A stretch of 50,894 bases of DNA from Anaerolineales bacterium. Lineage in GTDB: Bacteria; Chloroflexota; Anaerolineae; Anaerolineales; UBA4823. The translations under genes were made by a program, and so were the position numbers. The notes beneath the pieces were generated by a model that saw nothing but the letters and a program-made list of their open reading frames with translations, had not been told where the DNA came from and ran no database searches. Positions 13,630 through 38,259 of the stretch are shown here, piece after piece (the first letter of the stretch is position 1; every line of letters begins with the position of its first letter). The stretch covers positions 1 to 50,894 of the forward strand of contig JAWOHN010000257.1 in the NCBI GenBank assembly GCA_046485135.1, written 5' to 3'.

Positions 13630-13634
13630 AACCA

Positions 13635-15998: not shown

Positions 15999-16535
15999 AT
16001 GATGAGCGACGAGAGTCTCCCCTCTGCCCGCCTGGTACGCGACCTGATGAAGGTCGGTGTGCCTACCTGCTCTCCGGATACTCCCGTCCCGGCATTGGCG
16101 CGCCTGTTTGTGGATTTGAACTACGAAGCAATAGTTGTATTGAGTCCGGAGGACGGGCATGCCATCGGCATTGTCAGCCAGCAAGAGCTGGTGGCGGCCT
16201 TCAGCCGGGAAGGCGGCCGAGGCTTGACGGCAGGAGATATCATGCGCGAAGAGGTCTCAAAAGCACCAGCGGATATCCCTCTGGAAGCAGCGGCTCAAAT
16301 TATGCTGGATACGGGTGTGCGAGTGCTGTTTCAAACGCATCATGCCGGTGGGATTGAATACCCAGCGGCAATGCTGACGTTCAACCACCTGTTGCGACAT
16401 CTGGCAGCACAAAGTGATGAAGAACTGAGCGATCTGGGCATCCAAGCCAGGCGAGAGGCGCCTTTAGAGGCGTATTTCAAACGGAGAAAAGAAGCCCGCG
16501 CCAGACATATTAAAACAGATCCGACAAAACCATAG
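15999..16535 (+). CDS. CBS-domain protein
   Basis: VRDLMKVGVPTCSPDTPV, GIVSQQEL, AGDIM..., LEAAAQIMLD form a tandem CBS pair; start uncertain (GTG 15936 or ATG 15999). Confidence 0.8.
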   Translation: MMSDESLPSARLVRDLMKVGVPTCSPDTPVPALARLFVDLNYEAIVVLSPEDGHAIGIVSQQELVAAFSREGGRGLTAGDIMREEVSKAPADIPLEAAAQIMLDTGVRVLFQTHHAGGIEYPAAMLTFNHLLRHLAAQSDEELSDLGIQARREAPLEAYFKRRKEARARHIKTDPTKP

Positions 16536-16555
16536 AAAGTTACAGGAGGGAACCC

Positions 16556-17530: not shown

Positions 17531-17583
17531 GCCAAACAGGCGAGCAATTCGTTTGCGAAAAGAAAATACTCGGAGAAGTTACT

Positions 17584-18900: not shown

Positions 18901-18919
18901 TTAGCAAAAAGGGTAGATT

Positions 18920-20902: not shown

Positions 20903-20977
20903 TAAGAGAGATTCCGGGTCAACGTTTTTGTCGATCGATGGGTCTCGAAGCATGACCAATAGAAAAGGACAGGAACT

Positions 20978-21901
20978 ATGTACATCATTGGCGAAAACAT
21001 CCATATCATCTCAGACAAGGTTAAAGCGGCGCTGTCTGCGAAAGACGCGAAATTCTTTCAAGAGCTGGCTGTAGCGCAGGTAGAGGCAGGTGCGCAGGCG
21101 CTTGATCTGAATATGGGACCGCGCAAGAAGGACTGGGAAGAGGTCTTTCCCTGGATGGTTGAGACGGTCGAGGCAGTGGTTGATGTGCCGTTGAGCTTTG
21201 ACAGCACCAACTTGATGGGAATTGAGGCCGGCTTAAAGAAGGTGACCAAGGCCCAGCCGATTATCAACTCAACCTCAGCAGAACCAGAGCGCTTGGAGAA
21301 GGTGCCCTTGCTGGCGAAGAAGTACAACACGCGCCTGATCGCCTTGACCATGGGAAAAGGCGGTATTCCAATCGGCGCGGACGAAAGGGTGAATATCGCT
21401 CTGGAATCCTTGATCCCGCGCATGCTGGAGATCGATTTCCCGATCAGCGACCTGATTATCGACCCACTGGTGTTGACTGTATCCGGCTGCCAGGAATATT
21501 GCCCGCACCTCCTTGAAACTATCCGCACGCTGCAGTATGCCTGGGATCCGCCACCATCCATTTCAGTGGGGTTATCCAACGTGTCCAACGCAGTACCCCA
21601 AGAAAACAGAGGGCTGATCAACCAGGTTTATGGGGCGATGCTGATGGGCGTCGGCCTGCAGATGATGATAGCCGATCCCCTGGACAAAGAGTTGACAGAG
21701 ATGATCCGCATCGTTGAAATGCGCGATGATTCTACTCCGGTGGGAGGGTTGTACATCAAGATCGCTGATAGGATTGCCGAGATGGAAGAACCATCGATTG
21801 AAGATGTCGACACCACTGATCCTGAGCAAGTGGCGATCTGGAAGACGGTGCAGATCTTACTGAATAAGGTTATCTACGCTGAGAGCTATCTGACGCAATA
21901 A
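20978..21901 (+). CDS. acsE: Methyl-THF:corrinoid methyltransferase (pterin-binding TIM barrel)
   Basis: MYIIGENI, LDLNMG, LSFDSTN, IINST, IIDPL, GLSNVS; position in the acs operon. Confidence 0.88.
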   Translation: MYIIGENIHIISDKVKAALSAKDAKFFQELAVAQVEAGAQALDLNMGPRKKDWEEVFPWMVETVEAVVDVPLSFDSTNLMGIEAGLKKVTKAQPIINSTSAEPERLEKVPLLAKKYNTRLIALTMGKGGIPIGADERVNIALESLIPRMLEIDFPISDLIIDPLVLTVSGCQEYCPHLLETIRTLQYAWDPPPSISVGLSNVSNAVPQENRGLINQVYGAMLMGVGLQMMIADPLDKELTEMIRIVEMRDDSTPVGGLYIKIADRIAEMEEPSIEDVDTTDPEQVAIWKTVQILLNKVIYAESYLTQ

Positions 21902-22105: not shown

Positions 22106-25100
22106 ATGCAGATGATCAAACCACAGACTGTCCGGTCGAAGCCTGCGGCTGCCCTAGTTGTGGGCGGTGGTATCGGTGGCATGCGCGCAGCGCTAGACCT
22201 GGCAGATGCTGGATTAAAGGTATACCTGGTAGAACAAACCCCCTGCCTGGGAGGGCGGGTGGCGCAACTTGGGTTTATGTTTCCACAACATGACTGTGTG
22301 CTGTGCCGGGGTACGCAAGACCATGGATACGGGTGCACCCGTCCATCCATTTCTCCGGCTTATATCCAGAATAACCAACACCCAAATATCGAAATCCTGA
22401 CCAATACCCGCATCATGGATGTGCAGGGTGAGGCGGGCGATTTTACGGCTGCATTGGTCCAGGAGCCGCGCCATGTTGACCCCTTTCGGTGCATCAATTG
22501 TGATTTATGCGCGCAGGTGTGCCCGGTGGAGCTGCCAAATGCCTACCAGTTGGGGATGACCAAGCGGAAAGCAGCGTATAAAGTTTCGGCTCGGGCAGCG
22601 CCAGATGCGTATGTGATCGACCGAGGACCTTATTGCGACGATTGCGGGAAATGCGAGCAAGTTTGCCCAACAAATGCCATCAACTTAAGCGAGCAACCTC
22701 GCTTGCTTACGGTGGATGTCGGCGCGATCATCCTGGCGTTGGGATTCAAGGTGTACCCGGCGGGGGAGCACCAGGAATTGGGAGCAGGGCGCTATCCGAA
22801 CGTGCTGGAGTCGATGCAATACGAGCGCCTGGCCAGCCGCTCTGGGCCAACTGAGGGCAGTATTTATCGACCATCGGATGGAAAACCACCTAAGTCAATC
22901 GCCTGGCTGCAATGCATTGGCTCGCGCGAGAAGGATCATCCTTATTGTTCCTCGATTTGCTGCATGTACGCCACCAAAGAGGCCTTGCTGGCAACCCAGC
23001 GCCTGGGAAACGATGTTTCTTGCAGCGTGTTCATCATGGATGAACGGGCATTCAACAAAGAGTACAGCGCCTATTTTCACAAGGCGCGTGAGACGCACGG
23101 CATCCAGTACCACCGTAGCCGGGTATCGGAAATCAAGGAAGATTCTGCCACCCACGACCTGATCCTGAGCTATAGTGATTCGGATGGAAAGACGCATTCA
23201 GAACGTTTCGAGATGGTGGTTTTGGCGACTGGCTTGCAGCCGCCTGATTCAGCACGCCAGCTGGCGGAGATGCTCTCGGTGGAGCTGAACGAACACGGTT
23301 TTTGTGAAACTGATAAATTTACCCCCTTACAAACGACCCGCCCGGGCGTGTTTGTGTGTGGAGCCTTCTCCTCACCCAAGGAGATTGCCGAAACCATCCT
23401 GGACGCTTCTGGGGCGGCAGCAGAGGTCATGCGCTTGCTCAACGACCGGCTGCATACGTACCCATACACGCGCGCCTATCCATTTCTAAGTGCAGAAGAC
23501 TATCCGGATGAACGAGATGTGAGCGGCGACCCGCCGCGGGTAGGAGTGTTCAGCTGTACATGCGGTGGAACCTTAACCAAAGACCTGGACATGTCTGCGC
23601 TGACGGTGCGGTCGTTGAATTGGCCCGGTGTGGAAATGGCAGAGGTGATCGATCTGGCTTGTTTTCCAGAAGAGCTGGAAAGGATGCGCCAGCGGATTGT
23701 AGAGCATGGCTTGAACCGGATCGTGGTAGCTGCCTGTAGTAACCGGACGCACGATGCATTATTCCAGAAATTAATGCGCAGCGCGGGGTTGAATCCGTAT
23801 TTGTTAGAGGTGGTGAACCTGCGTGACCAATGCAGCCAGGTACACCAAGATGTGCGCCTGGCTAACCGCAAGGCAGTGGAGCTTGTGCGCGTAGCTGTGG
23901 GGCGGGTAGTGGTAGCCAGACCGGTGTACAAAGAGAAACACGCTTGCTTCCCAGCCGCGCTGGTTATAGGCGGAGGCGTGGCGGGAATGACGGCAGCCCT
24001 GGCCATTGCCGATAGCGGTTATGACGTGAATTTGGTTGAACGCTCTGAGATCCTGGGTGGACATCTGCGCAACCTGTACTATGTGGCAGAAGGTTACAAC
24101 CCACAACGCCTGTTACGCGACCTGGTGAACCGGGTGCGCGGTCACCAGCGTATCTTCACACATACCCGCACGGTGATTACAGGCCAATCGGGGCATGTAG
24201 GCAGCTTTACGACCGGGTTGCTGACCTACCATACAGATGGCTCAGCGGAGGCATTGAGCGTTGAGCATGGTGTCACGATTATGGCCACGGGCGCGCAAGA
24301 AAACAAACAGCACCCTTTGTTGGAGATGCCTGGGGTGATCGTGCAAAGCGAGCTGGAAGAGAAAATTATCCACCATCCTGAGGAGATTGCAGCTTTGAAG
24401 GATGTGGTCATGATGCAATGTGTGCGCCCGGAAGGGGTGGCAGATTACTGCTCACGGGTGTGTTGCACCAATACCATGAAAAATGCCATCCGCCTCAAGC
24501 TATTTAACCCATCTTGCCGGGTAACCGTGCTTTATAAGAATATTGTCACCTACGGCTTTCGAGAGGAATATTACACAGAAGCGCGCCGGCATGGGGTGAT
24601 CTTTATTCGCTACACTGACCAGGAGCCTCCGCAAGTGAAACGGGTTAACGGCAAACTGGTGGTGCAAGTGCGCGATCTGTCCTTGGATCGCCTGGTGACG
24701 CTACCAGCAGACTTGTTGACCATGAGCATGTCAATCACCCCGGCTGAAGGGAGCAGAGAGCTGGCTGAATTGCTGCGCTTACCCCTATCGACGGAAGGTT
24801 TCTTGGAAGAAGCCCAACTTAAACTTAGACCGATGGATTTCATGCGCGAAGGAATCTTTCTGGCAGGGATGGCGCATTATCCCAAATTCCTAGAAGAAAG
24901 TATCAGCCATGCTCTGGCGGCAGCCGGACGAGCGCTGACCTTGCTCTCTCAGGAGTCACTATACCTGGGCGGGGTGGTGGCGGTCGTTGATGCAGAGAAA
25001 TGCGTGGGCTGTCTGACTTGTACACGGACCTGTCCATTTGAAATCCCCCAGGTGATTGAAGTTGAAGGCCGGCATGGCGTTGGTCAGCTTGGGGGAGCGG

Positions 25101-25264
25101 CTTATATCGATCCGACTCAATGCCAGGGTTGCGGGACATGCACAGGTGAATGTCCCGCCAATGCAATCCAATTGATCCATTACACAGATGAGCAGATGAT
25201 GCTGAGATCCATTGCAGGCCTGGGATCCTGGCAGGCTGAAACGATGATTGAGGCAATACAATGA
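22106..25264 (+). CDS. hdrA: HdrA-family flavo-iron-sulfur protein, double-core type (1052 aa)
   Basis: Two GGGxxG FAD motifs; QCIGSR..YCSSICC and YCSRVCC; CxC/ACS/NLRDQCS N-type domain; two 2x[4Fe-4S] ferredoxin modules. Confidence 0.92.
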   Translation: MQMIKPQTVRSKPAAALVVGGGIGGMRAALDLADAGLKVYLVEQTPCLGGRVAQLGFMFPQHDCVLCRGTQDHGYGCTRPSISPAYIQNNQHPNIEILTNTRIMDVQGEAGDFTAALVQEPRHVDPFRCINCDLCAQVCPVELPNAYQLGMTKRKAAYKVSARAAPDAYVIDRGPYCDDCGKCEQVCPTNAINLSEQPRLLTVDVGAIILALGFKVYPAGEHQELGAGRYPNVLESMQYERLASRSGPTEGSIYRPSDGKPPKSIAWLQCIGSREKDHPYCSSICCMYATKEALLATQRLGNDVSCSVFIMDERAFNKEYSAYFHKARETHGIQYHRSRVSEIKEDSATHDLILSYSDSDGKTHSERFEMVVLATGLQPPDSARQLAEMLSVELNEHGFCETDKFTPLQTTRPGVFVCGAFSSPKEIAETILDASGAAAEVMRLLNDRLHTYPYTRAYPFLSAEDYPDERDVSGDPPRVGVFSCTCGGTLTKDLDMSALTVRSLNWPGVEMAEVIDLACFPEELERMRQRIVEHGLNRIVVAACSNRTHDALFQKLMRSAGLNPYLLEVVNLRDQCSQVHQDVRLANRKAVELVRVAVGRVVVARPVYKEKHACFPAALVIGGGVAGMTAALAIADSGYDVNLVERSEILGGHLRNLYYVAEGYNPQRLLRDLVNRVRGHQRIFTHTRTVITGQSGHVGSFTTGLLTYHTDGSAEALSVEHGVTIMATGAQENKQHPLLEMPGVIVQSELEEKIIHHPEEIAALKDVVMMQCVRPEGVADYCSRVCCTNTMKNAIRLKLFNPSCRVTVLYKNIVTYGFREEYYTEARRHGVIFIRYTDQEPPQVKRVNGKLVVQVRDLSLDRLVTLPADLLTMSMSITPAEGSRELAELLRLPLSTEGFLEEAQLKLRPMDFMREGIFLAGMAHYPKFLEESISHALAAAGRALTLLSQESLYLGGVVAVVDAEKCVGCLTCTRTCPFEIPQVIEVEGRHGVGQLGGAAYIDPTQCQGCGTCTGECPANAIQLIHYTDEQMMLRSIAGLGSWQAETMIEAIQ

Positions 25265-25773
25265 CGCAGAAAGAAATCAGCCAGGAATTTGAACCTGAAA
25301 TCACTGCATTTTATTGCGTTTACTGTGGTTATATGGCAGCAGATACAGCCGGGGCGCTGCATATCCAATACCCGCCGAACGTGAAGTTTGTGCGAATGCC
25401 ATGTGGCGGCAAGACCGATATCCGTTACCTGCTGGAAGCCTTCGAGCAAGGGGCAGACGGAGTTTACTTGCTGGCCTGCCCGATCGGTAACTGTCACCAT
25501 GTGCGGGGGAACGAACGAGGCCAGGCGCGCATGGAACGGGCCAAAGCAATATTAGACGAAATCGGCCTGGGTGGAGAGCGCTTAAACATGTTTTTCATGT
25601 CCGGCAGCCAGGGACAGGCTTTTGCTAACGCAGCGAAAACGATGACGGAGCGCATCCGCAAGCTCGGTCCAAATCCGCTTAAGTTTGCAATTGAGAAAGT
25701 GCACGTTCCGATATCGATTGAAAGTGATCCAGAAGAAGAAAACGGTTTCCGAGGCAGGCGCCCAAAACGCTAA
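25261..25773 (+). CDS. mvhD: MvhD/FlpD [2Fe-2S] subunit, cysteine form
   Basis: FYCVYCGY, MPCGG, GADGVYLLACPIGNCHH (TGC at 25477), LGPNP; ATGA overlap with hdrA. Confidence 0.92.
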   Translation: MTQKEISQEFEPEITAFYCVYCGYMAADTAGALHIQYPPNVKFVRMPCGGKTDIRYLLEAFEQGADGVYLLACPIGNCHHVRGNERGQARMERAKAILDEIGLGGERLNMFFMSGSQGQAFANAAKTMTERIRKLGPNPLKFAIEKVHVPISIESDPEEENGFRGRRPKR

Positions 25774-25823: not shown

Positions 25824-28800
25824 ATGGCAAATTCTAAGGTATCTCCCTCCAAAGAACCTGCAATGCCGACCGGATCAGTAGTGGTCGTGGGTGGTGGAAT
25901 CGCGGGTATACAGGCCTCCCTAGACCTGGTGGAGCAAGGCTTTAAAGTTTATCTGGTTGAAACGCAAACTGCCATCGGTGGCAAGATGGCCCAGCTCGAT
26001 AAGACCTTCCCGACCAATGACTGCGCCATGTGCACGATCTCGCCGAAACTGGTTGAGACCGGGCGCCACCCCAATATCCACGTAATGACGGATACTGAGG
26101 TTTTAGATGTAAAGGGACAGGCTGGAAATTTCAGCGTTACCTTGCAGCATAAGGCCCGCTATATCGATACCTCGAAATGTGTGGGCTGCGGGGAATGCAC
26201 GGCTGTCTGTCCGGTGGTTGTGCCTGATAAGTTTAATGAGGGGCTAGACCAGCGCAGAGCAATTTTCAAGTTATACCCACAGGCTGTCCCAAATGCGTAT
26301 GCGATTGAGAAGCAAGGCATTTCTCCTTGCCGAGACGCCTGCCCGGCGGGTCAGCGTGCCCAAGGGTACATCGCATTAATCCGGGAGGGGCGCTGGGATG
26401 ATGCGCTGCGGGTAATCAAAATGGACAATCCCTTCCCGGGCATCTGCGGACGTATCTGCAACCACCGCTGTGAGACAGCCTGCAATCGCGGTCATGTAGA
26501 TGAGCCGATCAATATCCGGGCTTTGAAGCGATTTGTGACCGATAAGGTATATGCTGAACCACGAACACAAATTGAAGCGGTCCAAATTAAATATCCAGAC
26601 CGGCGGGTAGCGATCATCGGAGCTGGTCCCTGTGGACTGACGGCAGCGCGAGACCTGGTGGAAGCCGGCTATCCGGTTACCGTGGTCGAGGCCATGCCGG
26701 TGGCGGGCGGTATGCTGCGTTTGGGTGTGCCTGAGTACCGCTTGCCAGCAGAGATCATCGAGAGAGAAGTGCAAGACATCCTGGATCTGGGCGTAGAGCT
26801 GCGCTTGAACCACCAGGTGGAAAACCTGGATGATCTGTTTGACGAAGGCTTTGAAGCGGTATTGATTTCAGTGGGCGCGCATGAAGGCGTTCGCCTGCCG
26901 ATCCCCGGCGCAAACCTGGAAGGTGTATTGATCAACACGCACTTCTTGCGAGACGTGCGCCTGGGGAAATATGCGCAAGTCGATATCTCTGGCAACGGAG
27001 ATGCTGCCCCAGAACTGGGTGAACATGTGCTGGTCCTGGGGGGCGGAAATGTGGCGATCGACGTGGCACGCACGGCAGTGCGCCTGGGGCGGAAGGTTTC
27101 GATGGCCTTCCTTGAGTCAAGGGAGACGATGCCCTCTCACGATTGGGAGGTGCAGGCGGCGTTGGATGAAGGTATCCGTCTGTACCCAAGCCGGACCTTT
27201 GAGCGGATTGTGGCGGACGGAGATGGCAAAGCGGCTGGTGTTGAGTGCATGAATGCGCGCAATTTCAGCTTTGATGAAACAGGCCGGCTGAACGTAGATA
27301 AAGAACCGAGCTCTAACCACGTGGTCCCATGCGATACGGTGATCTTCTCGGTCGGGCAGCGGGCGGGTCTGGCCTTTATCCCTGACGATGCCGGGGTGGG
27401 TATGACGAACAAGCGGACCATCGCCATCAACCCCAACACCTTTGCAGCCACCCGTCCAGGTGTGTTTGCAGCCGGTGATAGTGTATCAGGCACAGCTTTT
27501 GTCATTGAGGCGGTAGCCAGTGGGCACACGGCGGCCGAGTCGATCATCCGCTACTTACAGGGAGACCAACTGGAGCCGCAGCCGAAGCCAGATCTGCCGG
27601 TGGTGCACCTGTCGCAGGACGAGCTGGCGGAACGCATTGCCCTTGGCGAGATTCACCGCCAACCACGCGTGCTTTTGCCGCAATTGCCGGTGGCTCAACG
27701 CCTGGATAATTTTGCAGAGGTGGAGGGCGGTTATGATGATGAGTCTGCACAAAGAGAGGCGGCGCGCTGCCTGGCTTGTGGCGTCTGTTCGGAGTGCATG
27801 AGCTGTACTTTTGTCTGCGGGGTCAATGCCATCGACCATAATATGGTCGTCAGAGAGGAGGTCGTTGAAGCCGGGGCGATTATCCTGGCGCCTGGATATC
27901 AGATATACAAGGCTGAGCTGTCAGAAGAGTACGGATTTGGGCGCTATCCAAATGTGATCACCTCTTTGCAATACGAGCGAATCCTTTCGGCCAGCGGACC
28001 GACCCGAGGCCACCTCAAGCGACCTTCCGATAGCAAAGCGCCCAAGCGCATTGCCTTCTTGCAATGCGTAGGCAGCCGCGACCAGAGCCACGATTACTGT
28101 TCGTCCGTGTGTTGTATGTACGCGGCCAAAGAAGCGATTATGACCATCGAGCATGCCCGGGCAGAAGCACGGTTGAGAGGTGAGGAAGCGGATGTATCTT
28201 GCGAGGTCTTTTTCATGGACACGCGCGCCTACAGCAAAGGCTATGAAGAATATTACCGGCGGGCTGAGGGTAAATACGGAGTCAAGTACACCCGAGCGCG
28301 CATCAGCCAATTGCGCGAAGACCCGAAAACTGGGAACCTAATTGTGCGTTATGCTGCTCCTTATGAGGGCAAGCCAAAACCAATTGAGCGTGAATTCGAC
28401 CTGGTGGTCCTGTCTGTTGGGATGGAGATTTCGGAATCGGTGCGCCAACTTGGGCGGACGCTAGGTGTCGAGCTGGACGATTACGGCTTTTGCCATACGA
28501 CGCTATTTGACCCATTGCAAACCAGCCGCCCTGGCATCTTTGCTGCCGGACCTTTCCGTGAGCCGAAGGATATCCCCGAATCGGTCACCGAGGCCAGCGG
28601 GGCGGCAGCGGCTGCTGCACAGCTCCTGTCTGCTTCCCGCTTTACATTGACCAGCGTACCAGAATACCCACCGATGCGCGAAGTGAAGGAAGAACCGCCC
28701 CGGACGGGAGTCTTCGTTTGCCATTGCGGTAGCAATATCGGCGGATATTTGGATGTGCCAGACGTGGCGAAATATGCCGGCTGTCTGCCTGGCGTGGTCC

Positions 28801-30416
28801 ACGCGGAAGATAATTTGTATACCTGCTCGCAGAATACCGTTGAACATATCATTGAGCAAGTGCGCGAGCTTGGGTTGAACCGGGTGGTGGTGGCTTCCTG
28901 TACTCCTTTGACGCATGAGGGCATGTTCCAGGATGCTTTACGACAGGCCGGACTCAACCCGTACTTATTCGAGATGGCCAATATTCGCAACCAGTGTTCC
29001 TGGATTCATTCAAAAGACTGGGATGGAGCTACAGAAAAGGCCAAAGCGCTGGTGCGCATGGCGGTTGGCCGAGTGGGCGAGCTGGAGCAGCTGTACACCG
29101 AAGAGGTGCAGGTGGAACATTCTGCACTGGTGATCGGTGGTGGACCGGCGGGTATGACAGTCGCACTAAGCCTGGCAGATCAGGGATTTCCGGTGCATTT
29201 GGTGGAGCGTAGCGCGAAATTAGGCGGCAATTTACGAAACCTGCGTTATTTCGCTGACCAGGAGCGCACGCCGTTGGATTTCCTGAACGAGATCGAGGCG
29301 AATGTCCTGAAGCACCCCCTGATCACTACCTACCTGGATGCCGAAGTCAAGGAAACCGGCGGCTTCAAAGGTAGCTTTTCCTCCAAAGTGCGTGTAGGCA
29401 CCCAGACGATTCGCGTCCAACATGGCGTGACCATCCTGGCAACCGGCGGAGTCGAATATAAGGGTCAGGAATACGGATACGGGCGTGACTCGCGCATTTT
29501 GACCCAGCTGGAATTTGAGCAGCGCCTGGCAGAGAACGGGGCAGAACTTCCTGGCAAGGTGGTCATGATTCAATGTGTTGGTCCAGGCGAAAAATCTTGC
29601 AGCCGGATATGCTGCACAACTGCCTTGAAAAATGCGCTCAAGCTCAAAGATCTCAACCCTGCTGCGGATGTGACGATTCTATACCGGGATATCCGTACCT
29701 ACGGGTTCAAAGAACGGCTGTACAGTCAAGCCCGCCAGGCAGGGATCCGCTTTGTCCATTTTGAATTCGAGCATAAACCGAAAGTGCGGGTAAGCCCACA
29801 GGACAGCACCCGGCCCGGAAGGCTTTCAGTGAAAATCACAGAGCCTCTCCTGGAGCGCGAGATCGAACTGGGCGCTGACCTGATCGTATTGAGTACGCCA
29901 ATGGTTCCTGCAGAAGGTATCCAGGATCTGGCTACGGCGCTCAAGTTGTCGGTGGGTACGGACGGCTTCTTTATGGAGGCGCATGTTAAGCTACGCCCGG
30001 TCGATTTCACCTCAGACGGGGTCTTTATGGCTGGCGCAGCCCACTTCCCGAAATTCCTGGATGAGACGCTTGCCCAGGCGCAGGCGGCTGCTTCGCGAGC
30101 CGCTATCACGCTGTCGAAACGAACCCTGTTAACCAATGCGAGTGTTGCTGTGGTCGATGCGGAAAAATGCGTTGGATGCCTGACATGCGTGCGGATTTGC
30201 CCTTATGACGTACCAAAGGTTTCGAATGATTACACCGGCGCCGGTGGAATCCTGGGCGCGGCTTATATTGAACCGGCTGTCTGCCATGGATGTGGAAGCT
30301 GTGCGGCTGAATGCCCAGCTCAGGCCATTCAATTGATGCACTATAAAGACGCTCAAATCCTGGTCAAACTGGATGCCTTATTCAATCAAACCCCAGAAAG
30401 GGTCGTGGTGAAGTGA
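25824..30416 (+). CDS. hdrA: HdrL-type HdrA with inserted GltD-like NAD(P)H:FAD oxidoreductase module (1530 aa)
   Basis: QLDKTFPTNDCAMC; insert with PCRDACP, CGRICNHRCETAC, GAGPCG, GGGNVAID, GVFAAGD, EAARCLAC; two HdrA cores; C-terminal ferredoxin. Confidence 0.92.
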   Translation: MANSKVSPSKEPAMPTGSVVVVGGGIAGIQASLDLVEQGFKVYLVETQTAIGGKMAQLDKTFPTNDCAMCTISPKLVETGRHPNIHVMTDTEVLDVKGQAGNFSVTLQHKARYIDTSKCVGCGECTAVCPVVVPDKFNEGLDQRRAIFKLYPQAVPNAYAIEKQGISPCRDACPAGQRAQGYIALIREGRWDDALRVIKMDNPFPGICGRICNHRCETACNRGHVDEPINIRALKRFVTDKVYAEPRTQIEAVQIKYPDRRVAIIGAGPCGLTAARDLVEAGYPVTVVEAMPVAGGMLRLGVPEYRLPAEIIEREVQDILDLGVELRLNHQVENLDDLFDEGFEAVLISVGAHEGVRLPIPGANLEGVLINTHFLRDVRLGKYAQVDISGNGDAAPELGEHVLVLGGGNVAIDVARTAVRLGRKVSMAFLESRETMPSHDWEVQAALDEGIRLYPSRTFERIVADGDGKAAGVECMNARNFSFDETGRLNVDKEPSSNHVVPCDTVIFSVGQRAGLAFIPDDAGVGMTNKRTIAINPNTFAATRPGVFAAGDSVSGTAFVIEAVASGHTAAESIIRYLQGDQLEPQPKPDLPVVHLSQDELAERIALGEIHRQPRVLLPQLPVAQRLDNFAEVEGGYDDESAQREAARCLACGVCSECMSCTFVCGVNAIDHNMVVREEVVEAGAIILAPGYQIYKAELSEEYGFGRYPNVITSLQYERILSASGPTRGHLKRPSDSKAPKRIAFLQCVGSRDQSHDYCSSVCCMYAAKEAIMTIEHARAEARLRGEEADVSCEVFFMDTRAYSKGYEEYYRRAEGKYGVKYTRARISQLREDPKTGNLIVRYAAPYEGKPKPIEREFDLVVLSVGMEISESVRQLGRTLGVELDDYGFCHTTLFDPLQTSRPGIFAAGPFREPKDIPESVTEASGAAAAAAQLLSASRFTLTSVPEYPPMREVKEEPPRTGVFVCHCGSNIGGYLDVPDVAKYAGCLPGVVHAEDNLYTCSQNTVEHIIEQVRELGLNRVVVASCTPLTHEGMFQDALRQAGLNPYLFEMANIRNQCSWIHSKDWDGATEKAKALVRMAVGRVGELEQLYTEEVQVEHSALVIGGGPAGMTVALSLADQGFPVHLVERSAKLGGNLRNLRYFADQERTPLDFLNEIEANVLKHPLITTYLDAEVKETGGFKGSFSSKVRVGTQTIRVQHGVTILATGGVEYKGQEYGYGRDSRILTQLEFEQRLAENGAELPGKVVMIQCVGPGEKSCSRICCTTALKNALKLKDLNPAADVTILYRDIRTYGFKERLYSQARQAGIRFVHFEFEHKPKVRVSPQDSTRPGRLSVKITEPLLEREIELGADLIVLSTPMVPAEGIQDLATALKLSVGTDGFFMEAHVKLRPVDFTSDGVFMAGAAHFPKFLDETLAQAQAAASRAAITLSKRTLLTNASVAVVDAEKCVGCLTCVRICPYDVPKVSNDYTGAGGILGAAYIEPAVCHGCGSCAAECPAQAIQLMHYKDAQILVKLDALFNQTPERVVVK

Positions 30417-30883
30417 TGTCGAGAGAATTTACACCGGAAATCGTCGCCTTTTGCTGTCATTATTGCGCTTACGCGGCCGCGGATCTGGCTGGCGCGATGA
30501 GGTTGGAATATCCCCCCTCGATCAAGATCATCGAGCTGCCCTGCTCTGGAAAACTGGATGTGCTGTACGTACTGCGGGCATTCGAGGACGGTGCGGACGG
30601 GGTCATGGTGGCAGGTTGACTGGAGGGCGAATGCCATTACCTGGAAGGTAATCTCAACGCCCGGCGGCGAATTGAATACGCTCAAAAGATACTGGAAGAA
30701 ATCGGACTGGAAGGCAGGCGAATCCAGATGATCAATGTATCTGCTGCCATGGGAGGGCAGTTTGCCTGGTCAGCGGCTGAGCTGACCGAAGAAATCAAGC
30801 GGCTGGGACCTAATCCGTTGAAGCCAGAATCGAGAGAAGATTGGGTGCAAACAGGGGTTTTAGGTGAGGAGGAAGCCAAATGA
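30416..30883 (+). CDS. mvhD: MvhD [2Fe-2S] subunit, probable selenoprotein (Sec68, UGA 30617-30619), 155 aa
   Basis: GADGVMVAG-U-LEGECHYLEGN continues in frame through GLEGRRIQM and LGPNPL to TGA 30881-30883; SECIS-like hairpin after the UGA; overlaps both neighbours. Confidence 0.9.
30625..30662 (+). promoter_or_regulatory. Bacterial SECIS-like hairpin
   Basis: Upper stem ATTACCT-GGA-AGGTAAT (30636-30652); lower stem GGGCG/CGCCC; G-led apical loop 24 nt after the UGA. Confidence 0.8.
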
Positions 30884-31296
30884 CAAAGGAAGCGTATATC
30901 CTGGTTGTGGATGATGACCCAGACATCCTGGAAAATATTGTCACCATCCTAGAAACCCAACCTTACCGGCTGGCTACAGCGCGGGATGGCAAACAATGTA
31001 TGAAAATGTTGGAACAAGAAACGCCTGACCTGTTGATCTTGGATCTGCTGATGCCACGCATGGATGGGTGGGGCGTGATTCGCGAGATGCGCAGTGAGCG
31101 GAAATTCGATAAGGTTCCTATTATGATCCTCTCCACGGTGGTAGAGGACGCCAGCCGGCGGCGGTATGAACTGGAGACAGGCATGTCGATGGATGTTCAA
31201 GAGTATATCCAGAAGCCAGCCAGACCAGCGGAACTATTACGGCTGGTGGTTAAGCTATTAAATATCAAGGAGGCGGCTGACTTTGAAATTGGTTAG
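30880..31296 (+). CDS. Single-domain response regulator (receiver only)
   Basis: ILVVDDD, PDLLILDLLMPRMDG, IMILST, YIQKP; no output domain. Confidence 0.92.
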   Translation: MTKEAYILVVDDDPDILENIVTILETQPYRLATARDGKQCMKMLEQETPDLLILDLLMPRMDGWGVIREMRSERKFDKVPIMILSTVVEDASRRRYELETGMSMDVQEYIQKPARPAELLRLVVKLLNIKEAADFEIG

Positions 31297-31307: not shown

Positions 31308-32546
31308 ATGGATAACTCCGGGTTTGACAGCGTATTTGATGGAATGGACCCAAGGGTCCTTATCACTGTTGCGCGCTTGCGAAATTCTGAGATCTTTGCG
31401 GAATTGGATGAGGAAGACCTGGTCTCCATTGCTGGATTTTGCCGAGAAGAGAACTACCAGGACGGGCATATTGTCCTTGTTGAAGGACAACCCGCCAACT
31501 CAATGTTCATTATCGAACGTGGCAAGGTTGCGTTGGAGAAAAAAGTGCAAATTGGGCGGCATACGACACCGCGCAATGCAACGATAGATTATGTGGGACC
31601 GGGTCAAATCGCTGGATTCTCGTCGCTGACCCCACCATACTTGTACGCCACATCAGCGGTGTGCACCGAGCCAACCCGAGTTCTGTACATTGATGCGGAT
31701 CAGTTGCGAGAGTATCTACGCGAGCAGCCAAAGGCTGGCTATCCCATCATGTTGAAAATGGCCCGGCTGATCGGGTTTCGCTACCGGGGCTCAATCGATA
31801 CATTGACGTATTTCTTGTCAATCGTCTCTCATGAATTACGCTCCCCCCTGGCGGCGATCGAGAACTATCTGCAAACCATGCTGGGTGGCTTTGCCGGGGA
31901 GCTGACTCAGAAACAAGATAAGATGATCAAGCGGTGCGTGGTGAGAGTGACGGATCTGCGGGCATTGATCAGTGATGTAGTAGATCTGGCCCGTATGCGT
32001 CCCGAGCAAATCCAGGCGGATTTTGAATGGTTTGACCCCGGGGATACGGGCACAGAATCGATCGAGGATGTGCGGCTGGCGGCAGCAGAAAAGAATATCC
32101 GCATCCGGGTGGCGCCACCGGCGAAGTTTGAACCGATTGTGGGGGGGCACCGGCGGCTGAGGCAGGTGTTTACAAATATTTTGAACAATGCCATCAAGTT
32201 TTCACCGCCCGATAGTACGATCATTTTTCGAGCCTGGTACGAAGCGGATCAGCTGATTTTTGAAGTGGAAGATGAAGGACCGGGTATCCCTACAGAGGAG
32301 ATGGATGAGGTCTTTAAGGATTTCTTCCGAGCCAGTAATGTTGGCGATACACCGGGTATGGGTCTGGGCCTGTCCATCGCCCATAATATTATCGAAGCCC
32401 ACAATGGTGAAATCGTGGTGCGTAATGTCGGCGATGAAAGCGGTAAGACTGGCGCCTGCGTACGGATTGTGATCCCGCGCAACTTGATGACGCCGGAGAT
32501 GCGTAAACGAGAGTACGCCAAAGACCTGCAACAGATAGAGCAGTAA
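31308..32546 (+). CDS. Cytoplasmic sensor histidine kinase with N-terminal cNMP-binding/Crp-type domain
   Basis: IFAEL...EGQPANSMFIIERGKV...GPGQIAG; SHELRSPL H-box, NILNNAIKF, DEGPGI, GMGLGLSI; no TM helix. Confidence 0.9.
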   Translation: MDNSGFDSVFDGMDPRVLITVARLRNSEIFAELDEEDLVSIAGFCREENYQDGHIVLVEGQPANSMFIIERGKVALEKKVQIGRHTTPRNATIDYVGPGQIAGFSSLTPPYLYATSAVCTEPTRVLYIDADQLREYLREQPKAGYPIMLKMARLIGFRYRGSIDTLTYFLSIVSHELRSPLAAIENYLQTMLGGFAGELTQKQDKMIKRCVVRVTDLRALISDVVDLARMRPEQIQADFEWFDPGDTGTESIEDVRLAAAEKNIRIRVAPPAKFEPIVGGHRRLRQVFTNILNNAIKFSPPDSTIIFRAWYEADQLIFEVEDEGPGIPTEEMDEVFKDFFRASNVGDTPGMGLGLSIAHNIIEAHNGEIVVRNVGDESGKTGACVRIVIPRNLMTPEMRKREYAKDLQQIEQ

Positions 32547-32549
32547 GCT

Positions 32550-35500
32550 GTGACTACCATGAATGTGAGAAGTGCACCTCCAATTTATGAAGCTGAGCCA
32601 CCTGTAGGGGCCGTCCTGGTAGTTGGCGGTGGAATTGCGGGCATGCAGGCTGCGCTGGATCTGGCAGACCAGGGTTTCAAAGTGTACCTGGTCGAATCAG
32701 ACACGGCGATTGGCGGGCATATGGCGCAGCTCGATAAGACCTTTCCGACCAACGATTGCGCCATGTGCAATATCAGTCCAAAACTGGTGGATACGGGACG
32801 ACATCCGGATATTGATATCCTGACCGGAAGTGAAGTCCTGTCTATTAACGGAGAGGTGGGCAATTTCACCGCCCGGGTATTGAGGAAACCGCGCTACGTC
32901 GATGTGAATAAGTGCATTGGCTGCGGGGAATGTGTTCCGGTCTGTCCAGTGGAAATATTTGATCCGTATGAAGAGGGCTTGAAAACCCGCAAAGCCATTT
33001 ACCGGCGCTATGCTCAGGCGGTTCCGGCAGCCTATGCCATCGAAAAGCTGGGAACTGCCCCTTGCCGGAGTGGCTGCCCGGTAGGTCAGCGCGCCCAAGG
33101 ATATATTGCTTTGATTGCCAAAGGACGATATCGCGATGCCTTACGGGTGATCAAAGAAGACAATCCTTTTCCGAGCGTTTGTGGGCGGACCTGCCACCAT
33201 CCTTGCGAAGGGAAATGTACCCGAGCGCTGGTCGACGAGGCAGTCAGCATTATGTCGCTGAAACGCTTTGTGGTAGATTATGCCCTGGCTTACGGGAGAG
33301 AGAAGGTACAACCCGTTCCACGCACACATCCAGAATGGGTGGCAGTGGTAGGATCTGGCCCGGCTGGTTTGACAGCCGCCCATGATCTGGTCAAAATGGG
33401 CTATGGGGTGACAGTCTATGAAGCTCTCAGTGTCCCAGGTGGCCTGATGCGGGTGGGGATACCGGCCCACCGCCTGCCGAAAGGTGAATTACAACAAGAC
33501 ATCGATGACATCCTGGCCCTTGGCGTTGTCCTAAAAACCAATTCTCCGATAGAGGATCCGGTCAAATTGCTGGAGGAGGGCTATAACGCGGTCTGCCTGG
33601 CGACGGGTATTTCTTCAGCCAATCTCTCCCTGGGGATCGAAGGGGAGCAGGCGGAAGGAGTTTTGTTGGCGCCTGAGTTTCTACGCAAGATCAATTTGGG
33701 CCAGCCCATCCAGATTGGAGATCGGGTGGCAGTGGTAGGTGGAGGCATCACGGCGCTAGATGCGGCGGCTGTCGTGCGCAGGCTGGGTGCGGAAGTCTAC
33801 GTGGTATTAGATCGCCCGCGTGGAGAGCTGCCGGCTTACCAAACTGAAATTGAGGCTGTCGAAGCTGAGGGGATTCATATTTACGATCATATGACCGCGG
33901 CCCGCATCCTGTCAGAAAATGGAGCAGTAGTAGGTGTGGAGCTGGCCAAAGCGGACCAGGGGTATGTTACCGACGCGTCCGGACGGCGGCGGCCAAAGCT
34001 GGTACCCGGCAGCGAGATGCAACTGGAAGTGGATACCGTCATTGGCACTGTGGAACAGTTGTCGGACCTGACTTATCTGGCGCCAAAATATCAAGACCTG
34101 GCGGCGGATAAAAACACACTAGCCAGCAGCGTCCCCGGGCTGTTCGTGGTGGGTGGGCGGAAGACCGGAGCCAGCTATGTCATTGAAGCGGTTGCGCTGG
34201 GGCATAAAGTGGCTCGATCCATTCAGCGCTACCTGCAAGGTCTGCCTTTGTTGCAACCTGAAATACCCGCTCCGCCGATCGCTAAGCTGACCCGGCAAGA
34301 GGTGGCTGAGCGCGTACAAGCCGGGCATATTCAGCTGGCGCCCAGGCAAAAACCTGCTTTGTTGTCGATGGGCGAGCGGGCTACCAGCTTTCGAGAGGTG
34401 GTGCTTGGCTTTACCGAGCATCAGGCCAGGGCAGAAGCAGAGCGCTGCTTGCAGTGCGGCGTTTGCTCAGAATGTATGGAATGCTCTTATGCCTGTGGTG
34501 TGGATGCGATCGATCATGATAGCGTTGCGCGTGAAGAGGAAATCCGGATTGGGGCGGTCATCCTGGCGCCGGGTTACCAGGCATATTCTGCGGAGCATTC
34601 TGAAGAATACGGATTGGGTCGATATCCAAACGTATTGACCGCTCTGCAATTTGAGCGGTTGCTGTCCGCTTCAGGACCCACCTTGGGGCATGTGTTGCGA
34701 CCCTCAGACCAGCGGGAGCCAAGGCGAATTGCCTTCTTGCAATGTGTTGGCTCGCGAGATCGCACGCATGATTACTGTTCTTCTGTTTGCTGTATGTACG
34801 CTACGAAGGAAGCGGTGATCGCCAAAGAGCATTGTCCGGAATTGGATGTGCATATCTTTATGATGGATATGCGCGCGTTTTCAAAGGGTTACCTGGGCTA
34901 TTTTGAACAAGCCAGGCAACGCTACGGGGTCCATTACCACCATAGCCGGATCAGTCAAATCCGCGAAGATGCGCATAGCCACGATTTGCTGTTGCGCTTC
35001 AGCACTGTGGAGGAGACTTCTCAGGGTAAGGACTCTCCGGCAACGGCCCACCTGGAGCGGTTTGACATGGTGGTTCTCTCGGTTGGGATGGAGATTTCAG
35101 AGCCAGTGCGTGAGCTGGGCCAGCGCCTTGGGATTGAACTGGATAACTATGGTTTCTGCCAAACCGTCCAATTTGATCCGTTGGAGACAAACCGGCCTGG
35201 TATCTATGCGGTAGGGCCATTTCGGGAGCCAAAGGATATCCCCGAATCTGTCATCGAAGCGAGCGGGGCTGCGGCGGCGGCCGCTGGGCGCCTTTACCCG
35301 GCTCGGTTCAACCTGAGCAAACGCCCGGAAAAGCCTTTGGAACGAGATGTCAGCGATGAAGAGCCACGAATTGGAGTCTTTGTCTGCTCTTGTGGCTCGA
35401 ATATTGGCGGCTTCCTGGACGTTCCAGAAGTAGCCAGTTACGCGGAAAAGCTGCCGAATGTATGCCATAGTGAATGGAACCTTTACACCTGTGCGCAAGA

Positions 35501-37082
35501 TAGCATCGAGCGAATCACTGAACAGGTGCGGGAGCGTGGACTTAATCGGGTGGTGGTAGCCAGTTGCAGCCCTCTGACTCACAAACCGCTATTTCAAGAC
35601 AGTATTCGAGCGGCTGGTTTGAACCCATATTTATTTGAAATGGCAAATATCCGCAACCAATGCTCCTGGGTACACTCCCTGGATCGAGAAGCAGCCGGCG
35701 AGAAAGCCAAAGAGTTGGTGCGTATGGCGGTGGCAAGAGCAGCCTTATTAGAGGCTCAAAAGATGGTTGCTGTGGAAGTAAATCAGGCGGCTCTGGTGGT
35801 GGGAGGCGGCGCTGCCGGTATGACGGCGGCTCTGTCCCTGGCGGAGCAAGGCTTCCCGGTCCATTTGGTAGAAAAGCAGGCTGAGTTGGGCGGGAATTTG
35901 CGGCATCTTTACAAACAAGCCAGTGGAAAAGATCCACAGGAATACTTGTGCAGGCTGTTGCAAGAGGTGCATGCAAATCCAAATATCAGCGTGCATTTGG
36001 AGAGTCAGGTCGTTGCCAGCTCGGGATTTATGGGCAATTTCAGCAGCACCATCCTTGGCCCGCAAGGCAGGCAGCAAGTGTCTCATGGTGCGACGATATT
36101 GGCTACCGGCGGTGGAGAAGACCGGGAAAGATTAGGCGGTTTGCACAAAGATGAGCGTGTCCTGACGCAGCAAGAATTTGAGGCCTGGCTGTTTGCTTGG
36201 CAGCAGTCTGGGGAGATTGGCAAATCCAAGCGTCCTGCCAGGGTGGTGGTGCACCTGTGTGCAGGACAGGAAGTGGATTACTGTAGCCGGGTTTGTTGCT
36301 ACCAGGCGCTGAAAAATGTCCTTTGGTTGAAAGAGTTGTCTCCAGAAACCGAAGTACTGGTGCTTTACAAAGATATCCGAGCCTATGGTTTCAAAGAGAA
36401 GTTATATAAAGAAGCCCGCGCACAGAAGGTGCTGTTCTTGAGATATGACCATTCTCGCCCCCCACAAGTTGAGCACGTTCTGAGCGGAAAGGAACTCGAA
36501 CCAGCTCTGGCGATACGCGCCTGGGAAAACGCGCTGGGGAAGTGGATCGAGTGGGAAGCGGATCTATACGTGATGAGCTTGCCTGTTATTCCTAACCCGG
36601 AAACAAAAAGGACAGCGTCGATCTTTAAGGTGCCCAGAGATGCGGATGGTTTCTTTGTTGAGGCGCACGTCAAGCTAAGACCGGTGGATTTCGCCTCTGA
36701 GGGCATTTTTATGGCAGGTATGGCCCATTTCCCGAAGCTTTTGGACGAATCGATCATCCAGGCTAAAGCGGCTGCGGCGCGGGCAGCCAGGGTTCTGAGC
36801 CGGGAAATTCGCACGGTGGGGGGGCGGGTGGCAGTGGTCGACCCGGAACTGTGTACCGGTTGCCTGACCTGCGTCCGAATTTGTCCGTTTGGTGTGCCAC
36901 AGATCGACACCAATATTGCTGGAGCGGGAGGGATTATCGGGGCAGCCACGATTGAAGCCGCAGTGTGCCAGGGGTGTGGCAGCTGTGCGGCTGAATGCCC
37001 GGCTCGGGCGATCCAATTGAAGCACTATACGGATACCCAAATGAGCGCATTGGTGACGGCATTGATAGGGGAGGCGGTATGA
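32550..37082 (+). CDS. hdrA: Second HdrL-type HdrA with GltD-like insert (1510 aa)
   Basis: Same architecture as 25824-30416: DCAMC, PCRSGCP, CGRTCHHPCEGKC, GSGPAG, QCVGSR..YCSSVCC, C-terminal ferredoxin. Confidence 0.92.
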   Translation: MTTMNVRSAPPIYEAEPPVGAVLVVGGGIAGMQAALDLADQGFKVYLVESDTAIGGHMAQLDKTFPTNDCAMCNISPKLVDTGRHPDIDILTGSEVLSINGEVGNFTARVLRKPRYVDVNKCIGCGECVPVCPVEIFDPYEEGLKTRKAIYRRYAQAVPAAYAIEKLGTAPCRSGCPVGQRAQGYIALIAKGRYRDALRVIKEDNPFPSVCGRTCHHPCEGKCTRALVDEAVSIMSLKRFVVDYALAYGREKVQPVPRTHPEWVAVVGSGPAGLTAAHDLVKMGYGVTVYEALSVPGGLMRVGIPAHRLPKGELQQDIDDILALGVVLKTNSPIEDPVKLLEEGYNAVCLATGISSANLSLGIEGEQAEGVLLAPEFLRKINLGQPIQIGDRVAVVGGGITALDAAAVVRRLGAEVYVVLDRPRGELPAYQTEIEAVEAEGIHIYDHMTAARILSENGAVVGVELAKADQGYVTDASGRRRPKLVPGSEMQLEVDTVIGTVEQLSDLTYLAPKYQDLAADKNTLASSVPGLFVVGGRKTGASYVIEAVALGHKVARSIQRYLQGLPLLQPEIPAPPIAKLTRQEVAERVQAGHIQLAPRQKPALLSMGERATSFREVVLGFTEHQARAEAERCLQCGVCSECMECSYACGVDAIDHDSVAREEEIRIGAVILAPGYQAYSAEHSEEYGLGRYPNVLTALQFERLLSASGPTLGHVLRPSDQREPRRIAFLQCVGSRDRTHDYCSSVCCMYATKEAVIAKEHCPELDVHIFMMDMRAFSKGYLGYFEQARQRYGVHYHHSRISQIREDAHSHDLLLRFSTVEETSQGKDSPATAHLERFDMVVLSVGMEISEPVRELGQRLGIELDNYGFCQTVQFDPLETNRPGIYAVGPFREPKDIPESVIEASGAAAAAAGRLYPARFNLSKRPEKPLERDVSDEEPRIGVFVCSCGSNIGGFLDVPEVASYAEKLPNVCHSEWNLYTCAQDSIERITEQVRERGLNRVVVASCSPLTHKPLFQDSIRAAGLNPYLFEMANIRNQCSWVHSLDREAAGEKAKELVRMAVARAALLEAQKMVAVEVNQAALVVGGGAAGMTAALSLAEQGFPVHLVEKQAELGGNLRHLYKQASGKDPQEYLCRLLQEVHANPNISVHLESQVVASSGFMGNFSSTILGPQGRQQVSHGATILATGGGEDRERLGGLHKDERVLTQQEFEAWLFAWQQSGEIGKSKRPARVVVHLCAGQEVDYCSRVCCYQALKNVLWLKELSPETEVLVLYKDIRAYGFKEKLYKEARAQKVLFLRYDHSRPPQVEHVLSGKELEPALAIRAWENALGKWIEWEADLYVMSLPVIPNPETKRTASIFKVPRDADGFFVEAHVKLRPVDFASEGIFMAGMAHFPKLLDESIIQAKAAAARAARVLSREIRTVGGRVAVVDPELCTGCLTCVRICPFGVPQIDTNIAGAGGIIGAATIEAAVCQGCGSCAAECPARAIQLKHYTDTQMSALVTALIGEAV

Positions 37083-37516
37083 ACAGCGAAAAGTTCCAAA
37101 TCCTGGCTTACTGCTGCGAACATTGTGCATACGCCGCTGCCGACCAGGCAGGAGGCATGAGGTTACAATACCCAGCGCAAATCAAGATCGTTATGCTGCC
37201 CTGCACGGGAAAGCTGGATGTGTTGATGGTTTTGGAGGCGGTGGAAGCTGGTATTGACGGCGTGCTGGTGGCAGGTTGACTGCCAGGTGACTGCCATTAC
37301 CTGGAAGGTAATGCCAACGCCAGAAGACGGGTAGATCATTTGAGGTGCATTCTGAGCGATATTGGCCTGGAACCAGAGCGATTGCAAATGGTGAATATGT
37401 CCTCTGCGATGGGCGCCCAGTTTGCCCAGATGAGCACGGAGATTACAAATCAGATTATACAGTTAGGCCCTAACCCTTTGAGGTCAGGAAGAGCAGGTAA
37501 GATAAGCGATGTTTAA
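37079..37516 (+). CDS. mvhD: MvhD [2Fe-2S] subunit, probable selenoprotein (Sec67, UGA 37277-37279), 145 aa
   Basis: MNSEKFQILAYCCEHCAY...LPCTG...GVLVAG-U-LPGDCHYLEGN...GLEPERL...LGPNPL to TAA 37514-37516; ATGA overlap with hdrA; GGAGG RBS. Confidence 0.9.
37295..37313 (+). promoter_or_regulatory. Bacterial SECIS-like hairpin
   Basis: CATTACCT-GGA-AGGTAATG; same core sequence and same spacing from the UGA as at 30636. Confidence 0.8.
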
Positions 37517-37575
37517 GCAGAAGAGCAGGGATGACATCATCCCTGACTCAAATCACTCAAAAGGAGTGTGTATCC

Positions 37576-38259
37576 ATGATCGTTGCGGAACAAAAATCCC
37601 TGAATGAAATCAAGCAGCTGGTCGGCGCCGCCAAGAATGTGTTGGTGGTGGGCTGCGGGACATGCGTTACAGTCTGTTTTGCCGGCGGCTCGCGCGAGGC
37701 TGCTATCCTGGCCTCATCGTTGCGCATGGCCTCAAAGCTGGAAGGAGGTCCCAAAGCCGTGACTGACGTGACGGTGCAGCGACAGTGCGAGTGGGAATAT
37801 CTGGACGGCATTGCCGAACAAGTGAAGGAAGCTGAGCTGGTGGTGTCCTTGGGCTGCGGCATTGGTGTTCAAGCAATTGCCGAACATTTCCCGGAGACCT
37901 GGGTCGTGCCGGGGTTGAATACCAGATTCTTAGGTCTGCCCACCGAGCAGGGTATCTGGATGGAGCGCTGCGCGGCTTGCGGGGATTGCGTGTTGGGGTT
38001 GACGGGCGGGATTTGCCCCATTGCCCGTTGTTCGAAGTCCCTGTTGAACGGACCCTGTGGTGGATCGGTAGATGGACATTGCGAGATCGATCCAGAAGTT
38101 CCTTGTGCGTGGCAGCTTATTTACGATCGACTGAACAGCATGGGTAGGCTGGAGTTTATGACCGAAATTCAGCCAGCGAAGAACTGGCGGACAAGCAGGG
38201 ATGGTGGTCCGCGGCGAATAGTTCGCAATGATTTGAGACTGGCAGCAGAGGAGGAGTAG
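37576..38259 (+). CDS. metV: Methylene-THF reductase iron-sulfur subunit MetV
   Basis: GCGTCVTVCFAGG, RQCE, GCGIGVQ, CAACGDC, CPIARCSKSLLNGPCGG, C..CAW; AAGGAG RBS before ATG 37576. Confidence 0.92.
   Translation: MIVAEQKSLNEIKQLVGAAKNVLVVGCGTCVTVCFAGGSREAAILASSLRMASKLEGGPKAVTDVTVQRQCEWEYLDGIAEQVKEAELVVSLGCGIGVQAIAEHFPETWVVPGLNTRFLGLPTEQGIWMERCAACGDCVLGLTGGICPIARCSKSLLNGPCGGSVDGHCEIDPEVPCAWQLIYDRLNSMGRLEFMTEIQPAKNWRTSRDGGPRRIVRNDLRLAAEEE

Follow-up and report, generated by a model that had tools for sequence, protein, structure and literature searches.

An in-frame UGA codon in the second of three mvhD genes (copy 2) of an Anaerolineales bacterium very probably encodes selenocysteine (Sec). 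The gene lies on a contig of 50,894 nucleotides (GenBank assembly GCA_046485135.1, contig JAWOHN010000257.1), which was analysed at its full length and is called the window below. The best explanation is that the UGA at 30617 is read through to give an MvhD of 155 amino acids (aa), in which Sec68 is a predicted ligand of the [2Fe-2S] cluster and which is likely a relay in an HdrL-MvhD-MetVF-HdrCB system; the gene is likely intact and not broken. An original prediction, made from the sequence letters alone, had already proposed recoding instead of a pseudogene. We prefer recoding on four grounds: the Sec machinery is encoded in the same assembly, relatives carry an in-frame TGA at the same column, a hairpin of the bacterial selenocysteine insertion sequence (SECIS) type tracks this TGA, and the sequence behind it is under purifying selection.

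Reading frame and conservation of the UGA codon

The ATG at 30416 is in frame with the TGA at 30617-30619 (GVMVAG-*-LEGECHY), which forms codon 68 and is followed by 87 sense codons, as had been described; the protein thus comprises 67 residues, Sec and 87 further residues. The original prediction had extended a product of 68 aa to one of 155 aa; the second number is correct, but the two had been counted from different starts, i.e. GTG 30413 and ATG 30416. The stop of the upstream HdrL gene overlaps the ATG of copy 2 (TGATG), which favours a start at 30416. At the other end, the terminal TGA at 30881-30883 overlaps the ATG at 30880 of a response-regulator gene (ATGA, 30880-30883), again as predicted.

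When read through, copy 2 covers the Pfam family PF02662 (FlpD) over its full length (1-123 of 123; 164.5 bits against a cut-off of 22.3; E 1.3e-48), whereas the stopped form covers only positions 1-59 (E 3.7e-25). A structural model calculated from a 91-sequence alignment, with U read as C, reaches a pLDDT of 86.8 and has the MvhD fold: it superposes on 5odh_D and 7bkb_F with an rmsd of 1.3-2.0 Å, and comparison with the MvhD of 5odh, 7bkb, 5odc and 8rvu gives target-normalised TM scores of 0.90-0.94 over 128-137 columns. A single-sequence prediction was discarded (pLDDT 40.5). Cysteines 14, 17, 43 and 73 are invariant across the 91 aligned sequences, and the invariance of column 68 in this alignment is a result of choosing Cys rows. 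Column 68 is X, a non-standard residue, in VhuD of M. maripaludis (PDB 9sfi_K) and C in four other solved MvhDs, which is compatible with the earlier statement that some anaerobes use Sec at this position. The Cys paralog named there, copy 1, indeed reads YLLA-C-PIGNCHH, with TGC at 25477-25479.

For the comparison with relatives, 61 genomes were searched for MvhD, of which 47 gave a match; the 53 best-scoring loci were taken and 52 were parsed, leaving out L051, which duplicates the copy in the window, and L067, which did not fit the pattern. The column alignment of Cys and Sec that had been suggested as a check gives a clear picture: column 68 holds TGA in 30 loci (the two of this genome and 28 from 22 other genomes) and TGC or TGT in the other 22. 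TGA-bearing relatives span several families, and in all 30 TGA copies the frame stays open for 69 codons or more behind the TGA. The 68 codons that follow it are free of stops in the 13 closest copies from relatives; here the downstream part shows a mean identity of 0.78 with pN 0.13 and pS 0.62, and the 60 codons upstream a mean identity of 0.88 with pN 0.06 and pS 0.73. As judged from these substitution rates, the sequence behind the TGA is under purifying selection.

These results bear directly on the view that copy 2 is dead after the mutation of a Cys codon to a stop, with the Cys paralog as backup. Such a pseudogene would require a single change from TGC or TGT to TGA, and the genome has two Cys paralogs, one of them within this operon; but the sharing of this TGA by 28 copies in 22 genomes of several families, the frame that stays open behind it in all TGA copies, the low pN relative to pS and the tie between hairpin and TGA leave this view hardly credible, and conservation has already refuted it. 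Even less credit can be given to a sequencing or assembly error, although the record is a metagenome assembly with 82% completeness and 4.9% contamination. Contigs from two different studies span the stretch and show no other letter at 30617-30619 (both are flagged as possible sources of the record, and at most one of them is; runs X15 and X12, with only 21 and 15 letters on one side of the TGA, do not count as bridging). Likewise, the TGA of mvhD copy 3 is unchanged in the contigs that cover 37277-37279, and the TGA is shared by dozens of relatives, whereby an error is already refuted.

A second scan, of named genomes, overlaps the first set of relatives in part. Among the 80 loci listed, a number that is a lower bound, 45 carry TGA and 35 Cys; three of the 80 were read separately, and all three have TGA with the exact stem described below. 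Organisms titled Chloroflexota account for 43 of the 45 TGA copies and for all of the best 20 matches of the scan, the latter mostly from Anaerolineae or Anaerolineales. A tree places three Cys copies within a clade of 33 rows that otherwise consists of TGA copies, with internal support too weak to give the direction of change. Two variants may be mentioned in passing: in L141 column 68 is Cys and the CxxU column, where Sec is also known, reads as a stop, and the TGA copy L095 has Tyr at the conserved Cys73 column (LEGDYHY), be it a variant, an error or decay.

Among the best 120 database proteins, column 68 is C in 88, W in 17 and another or unparsed residue in 15. The W entries would fit a genome-wide reassignment of UGA to Trp or Gly (table 4/25), in which case residue 68 would not be Sec. 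The chance of this is negligible: the same column is C in the 88 proteins, the sole TCA-anticodon tRNA found is of the Sec type, and TGA ends 559 of the 1487 long open reading frames (ORFs) of the genome, a stop-codon usage which shows that UGA is not reassigned genome-wide and already refutes this alternative. Most simply, the W residues are gene-caller artefacts on short contigs.

SECIS-type hairpin, Sec machinery and predicted cluster ligands

A hairpin that the original prediction did not mention begins 17 nucleotides 3' of the TGA. It has the general form ATTACC-nGnnn-GGTAAT and tops a predicted stem-loop of -18.8 kcal/mol; the corresponding region of the Cys paralog folds worse than 200 of 200 shuffles. 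Among the 52 parsed loci, the 6-bp stem is perfect in all 30 TGA copies and in none of the 22 with Cys. Every one of the 30 TGA copies has the same stem codons, CAT, TAC, GGT and AAT, while their usage in the source genome is 0.51, 0.50, 0.23 and 0.45 (product about 0.026), and synonymous codons adjoining the stem vary in the same copies (Cys: TGT 19, TGC 11; Gly: GGC 16, GGT 10, GGA 4). The loop occurs as TGGAA, TGGAT, TGGAG, TGTTA, AGTTA and AGGTA, so that its second G alone is constant, which fits the G that is conserved in the apical loop of bacterial SECIS elements (PMC1794560, PMC1976440; here and below, papers are cited for those passages that were available).

In the second scan, the stem is exact in 44 of the 45 TGA copies, and in the remaining one it is replaced by the compensatory pair ATTTCC/GGAAAT; this copy (L136) comes from outside the titled Chloroflexota. 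The exact stem is also present in two of the 35 Cys copies (L102 and L112, both from close Anaerolineae), and in two further Cys copies six pairs are possible with G-U. Remnant SECIS elements have been described (PMC1794560); the hairpins kept in L102 and L112 look like such remnants and probably reflect recent changes from Sec to Cys. In the whole 3.1-Mb assembly the hairpin motif has two sites, each 3' of an mvhD UGA. The case for a SECIS is comparative and does not derive from stability, and this comparative evidence is strong.

A search of the source assembly for Sec machinery, suggested together with the original prediction, succeeded for three of the four genes and in part for the fourth. 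The assembly contains selA (533 bits, above the cut-off; E 3e-160), a tRNA-Sec gene (selC; anticodon TCA, 76.6 bits) and selD, which has an in-frame TGA of its own (CAG*ASK). Of selB only about the first 120 codons are present, cut by the end of contig C258; this N-terminal part is 84-92% identical to the full-length SelB of four relatives, and a full selB is present in a genome of the same genus (G001). Of the 22 TGA-bearing genomes, 20 have a selA match and 15 a selB match. The two with no selA match, G036 (63% complete) and G038 (93% complete), both possess tRNA-Sec and a selD with TGA.

Other genes of the source genome may use Sec as well. Four further thioredoxin-fold genes have TGA at the UxxC position and match their families on read-through, one of them above the cut-off (TIGR02187). 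Together with selD, the likely selenoprotein genes outside mvhD include C72:22581(+), C183:3449(-), C41:245(-), C222:2290(+) and C241:8181(+) (L018 and L167-L170): SelD, a protein disulfide oxidoreductase (TIGR02187), two Prx/SelL-like proteins and a deiodinase-like one. The formate dehydrogenase on contig C228 is a Cys form. Two ab initio scans for UGA read-through were too noisy for a count of the selenoproteome; four motif-bearing candidates were retained from them. Identical stretches on both strands of contig C106 (e.g. 18828+ and 7353-) suggest a palindromic assembly artefact.

A different kind of recoding would insert Cys at the UGA, by a Cys-inserting tRNA or by SECIS-dependent Cys insertion, or the two halves could be made as split peptides. 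The program aragorn found neither tRNA-Cys nor tRNA-Trp in the incomplete assembly, whose tRNA set is partial (30 tRNA types), and this counts in favour of such alternatives. The canonical tRNA-Sec, selA and selD argue against Cys insertion; as to split peptides, the frame behind the TGA contains no separate ORF of at least 60 aa that begins with a common start codon, and the conserved cysteines would be separated and one of them deleted. We consider these alternatives very improbable. For the decoding as Sec, we are nearly certain that SelB carrying Sec-tRNA(UCA) would bind the hairpin and insert Sec at UGA 30617, by analogy with the established bacterial pathway of SelB, Sec-tRNA and hairpin (PMC1794560, PMC9312934).

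Less certain is the assignment of the cluster ligands. Cys or Sec is conserved at five columns of the family (14, 17, 43, 68 and 73), and in copy 2 the [2Fe-2S] cluster is likely bound by Cys14, Cys43, Sec68 and Cys73, with Cys17 as a free cysteine. Sec68 is assigned by homology and by elimination: the non-ligand Sec19 of BamF, an MvhD homolog of Geobacter metallireducens, was placed at column 17 according to its position, which leaves the other four. We take the same columns 14, 43, 68 and 73 to be the ligands in the structure from M. thermolithotrophicus.

Several observations weigh against a Sec that is inserted at UGA 30617 and binds the cluster. The stability of the hairpin by itself is unremarkable (z -1.6; 19 of 200 shuffles fold equally well). 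The TGA copies are kin, so their counts are not independent events, and the two sets of relatives overlap in part. A search of the 82%-complete assembly, in which selB is only partly assembled, did not find the SECIS-binding C-terminal domain of SelB (PF09107); we attribute this to the contig break. Sec machinery is near-universal in the order (selA in 53 and selB in 44 of 60 genomes) and also occurs in genomes whose MvhD ortholog has Cys, hence its co-occurrence with TGA-bearing mvhD discriminates little. G038 (L026 and L064; 640 contigs) has TGA-bearing mvhD with neither a selA nor a selB match, probably as a result of assembly gaps. Concerning the ligands, no passage was found in the literature that names the cluster ligands of VhuD or MvhD or their residue numbers, and in BamF, the one bacterial structure that has been described with Sec in an MvhD-type protein, Sec19 occupies the place of a non-ligand cysteine (bioRxiv 10.64898/2026.04.10.717634).

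Gene cluster and proposed function

All genes from the CODH gene to hdrCB form one cluster on the same strand (Table 1). HdrA and MvhD are a textbook pair, and between 22106 and 40727 the cluster contains three HdrA/HdrL-MvhD modules, one with Cys and two with Sec, together with a single metVF-hdrCB set. The second Sec form, copy 3, was absent from the original prediction. The receiver-domain protein and the kinase sit between modules 2 and 3, a layout that recurs in relatives; the spacing of the three mvhD genes also recurs in several of them.

Table 1. Coordinates of mvhD copy 2, its predicted recoding signals and the surrounding genes in the window
Feature	Positions	Strand	Details
Wood-Ljungdahl carbonyl-branch cluster	11608-21901	+	CODH, ACS, CBS protein, AcsD, AcsC, AcsV, AcsE
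HdrA-like flavoprotein	22106-25264	+	1052 aa; partner of Cys-type MvhD
mvhD copy 1 (Cys form)	25261-25773	+	TGC 25477-25479; without hairpin
HdrL-type flavoprotein	25824-30416	+	1530 aa; HdrA + GltD-like NAD(P)H domain
mvhD copy 2 (Sec form)	30416-30883	+	155 aa with UGA read through; Cys14, Cys17, Cys43, Sec68, Cys73
In-frame UGA of copy 2	30617-30619	+	predicted Sec68; context DGVMVAG*LEGECHY
Predicted extended stem-loop around the copy 2 core	30620-30667	+
Core of predicted bacterial SECIS, copy 2	30636-30652	+	ATTACC-TGGAA-GGTAAT; conserved G 30643 (+24 after UGA)
Shine-Dalgarno-like site and stop/start overlap with response regulator	30866-30883	+	GAGGAGG 30866-30872; ATGA
Stand-alone receiver-domain protein	30880-31296	+
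cNMP-domain histidine kinase	31308-32546	+
Second HdrL-type flavoprotein	32550-37082	+	1510 aa; partner of mvhD copy 3
mvhD copy 3 (Sec form)	37079-37516	+	145 aa; in-frame UGA 37277-37279 (Sec67)
SECIS core of copy 3	37296-37312	+	identical: ATTACC-TGGAA-GGTAAT
metV	37531-38259	+
metF	38263-39297	+
Fused hdrCB	39297-40727	+

The most probable role of copy 2 is that of a [2Fe-2S] adaptor in an HdrL-MvhD-MetVF-HdrCB methylene-tetrahydrofolate (THF) reductase within the Wood-Ljungdahl cluster. No large subunit of a NiFe hydrogenase (PF00374) was found in the 82%-complete assembly, so that copy 2 is better read as an adaptor of HdrA than as a hydrogenase subunit, which it probably is not in this organism. 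In the first flavin domain of the 1530-aa HdrL, alignment with 5odc_A shows conservation at the positions of E356 and K409, the two residues given as the signature of electron bifurcation (PMC9430772). On balance we lean towards a route in which copy 2 docks on the product of the HdrL gene that precedes it, and the cluster of copy 2 would relay electrons from the GltD-like domain, which oxidises NAD(P)H, to a bifurcating FAD and from there to MetVF/HdrCB and a low-potential acceptor. A route of this kind has been proposed for Moorella and Sporomusa; in a Sporomusa pulldown MvhD interacted with HdrA, HdrB and MetF, with no stable complex and no bifurcation demonstrated (PMC9430772).

At the borders of the cluster, a small heavy-metal-associated-like ORF precedes the CODH gene (11197-11604, +), and its match to NF041115 (metal-binding (seleno)protein) is weak, at 26 bits and well under the cut-off. 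Downstream, two tandem P-loop ATPases (43441-45017, +) match Pfam CbiA/ParA; we take them to be CooC/AcsF-like, the CooC label being our assumption.

A more far-reaching interpretation is that selenium is a lineage-wide ligand of the MvhD [2Fe-2S] cluster in Anaerolineae and that the operon uses it as a switch by means of polarity from stalling at the UGA. Module 1, with HdrA and Cys-MvhD, would then be independent of selenium, while the two HdrL modules with NAD(P)H input would need Sec-MvhD; at low selenium, ribosomes might stall at the UGA, and by polarity the genes further downstream, namely the regulator/kinase pair, metVF and hdrCB, would be expressed less; polarity of this kind has been demonstrated with fdhF(Sec) of Treponema primitia (PMC3892789). 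The order of Cys copy before Sec copy recurs in relatives. Against a switch, the downstream mvhD copy is a Cys form in some relatives, and in 17 relative loci with the regulator next to mvhD none has the ATGA overlap; translational coupling to the regulator was therefore rejected as a conserved feature. We regard this interpretation as a whole as unlikely.

The value of the Sec reading lies mainly in correct annotation; it involves no new mechanism. Standard gene calling truncates copy 2 at 67 aa or writes Trp, as in the 17 database proteins with W, and this hides a probably intact subunit of a methylene-THF reductase. What also goes unnoticed is that the Wood-Ljungdahl pathway of Anaerolineae widespread in sediments probably requires selenium. 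Moreover, the Sec and Cys paralogs of one operon would provide a natural pair for measuring the effect of a selenium ligand on the potential of a [2Fe-2S] cluster.

Comparison with known selenoproteins and methylene-THF reductases

Archaeal VhuD (9sfi_K) belongs to the same family and fold as copy 2 (E 2e-39), is likewise a [2Fe-2S] adaptor on HdrA and has a non-standard residue at the Sec68 column. It differs in a second X at the CxxU column, where copy 2 has Cys17, in a SECIS located in the 3'-UTR, and in its partner, a NiFeSe hydrogenase or a formate dehydrogenase. Copy 2 reaches 165 bits against NCBIfam NF045873, below the cut-off of 215; with this score, Cys17 and no PF00374 found in the 82%-complete assembly, it is not of the archaeal VhuD type. 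Archaeal forms carry two Sec residues, and bacterial forms one of those two (PMC1976440).

The Hdr-type methylene-THF reductases HdrABC-MvhD-MetVF of Moorella thermoacetica and Sporomusa ovata (PMC9430772) and the hdrABC-mvhD-metVF cluster of marine Anaerolineae (PMC5736913) share with the window the arrangement of hdrA/L, mvhD, metV, metF and fused hdrCB in one cluster and a large HdrA containing GltD; the E and K of the bifurcation signature are retained here as well, in the one flavin domain that was aligned. Unlike these systems, the window has three HdrA-MvhD modules and an inserted regulator/kinase pair, and the available passages of both papers do not mention Sec in MvhD. The same holds for the available passages of a report of Sec-containing formate dehydrogenase in Anaerolineales (PMC4959059). 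A literature search, supplements and database annotations apart, found no paper naming Sec-MvhD in Chloroflexota; this group of hosts may be under-documented.

BamF of the class II benzoyl-CoA reductase of Geobacter metallireducens resembles copy 2 as an MvhD-homologous [2Fe-2S] adaptor with one Sec. According to the available text of its description, however, Sec19 is a free residue beside the cluster and not at the GU column, and BamF is more than 100 aa longer than copy 2.

The bacterial Sec-FrhD/MvhD proteins, like copy 2, have one Sec and are encoded directly after hdrA or hdrL. They are listed for Syntrophobacter, Syntrophus, Moorella thermoacetica, Carboxydothermus and others (PMC1794560, Table 3) and for Olavius symbionts (PMC1976440), and Desulfobacterium autotrophicum has four Sec-mvhD genes (mvhD1, 2, 3 and 5) beside hdrA/hdrL (PMC2702500). 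Those hosts are Deltaproteobacteria or Clostridia, whereas the host of copy 2 belongs to the Chloroflexota (Anaerolineae); a further difference from the published loci is that the HdrA/HdrL genes next to copy 2 have uninterrupted frames with Cys. Published lists of selenoprotein families include PF02662 (PMC13188914, PMC9312934), and the Sec form of copy 2 is an ordinary new member of the long-known Sec-MvhD/FrhD family, which is also present in bacteria.

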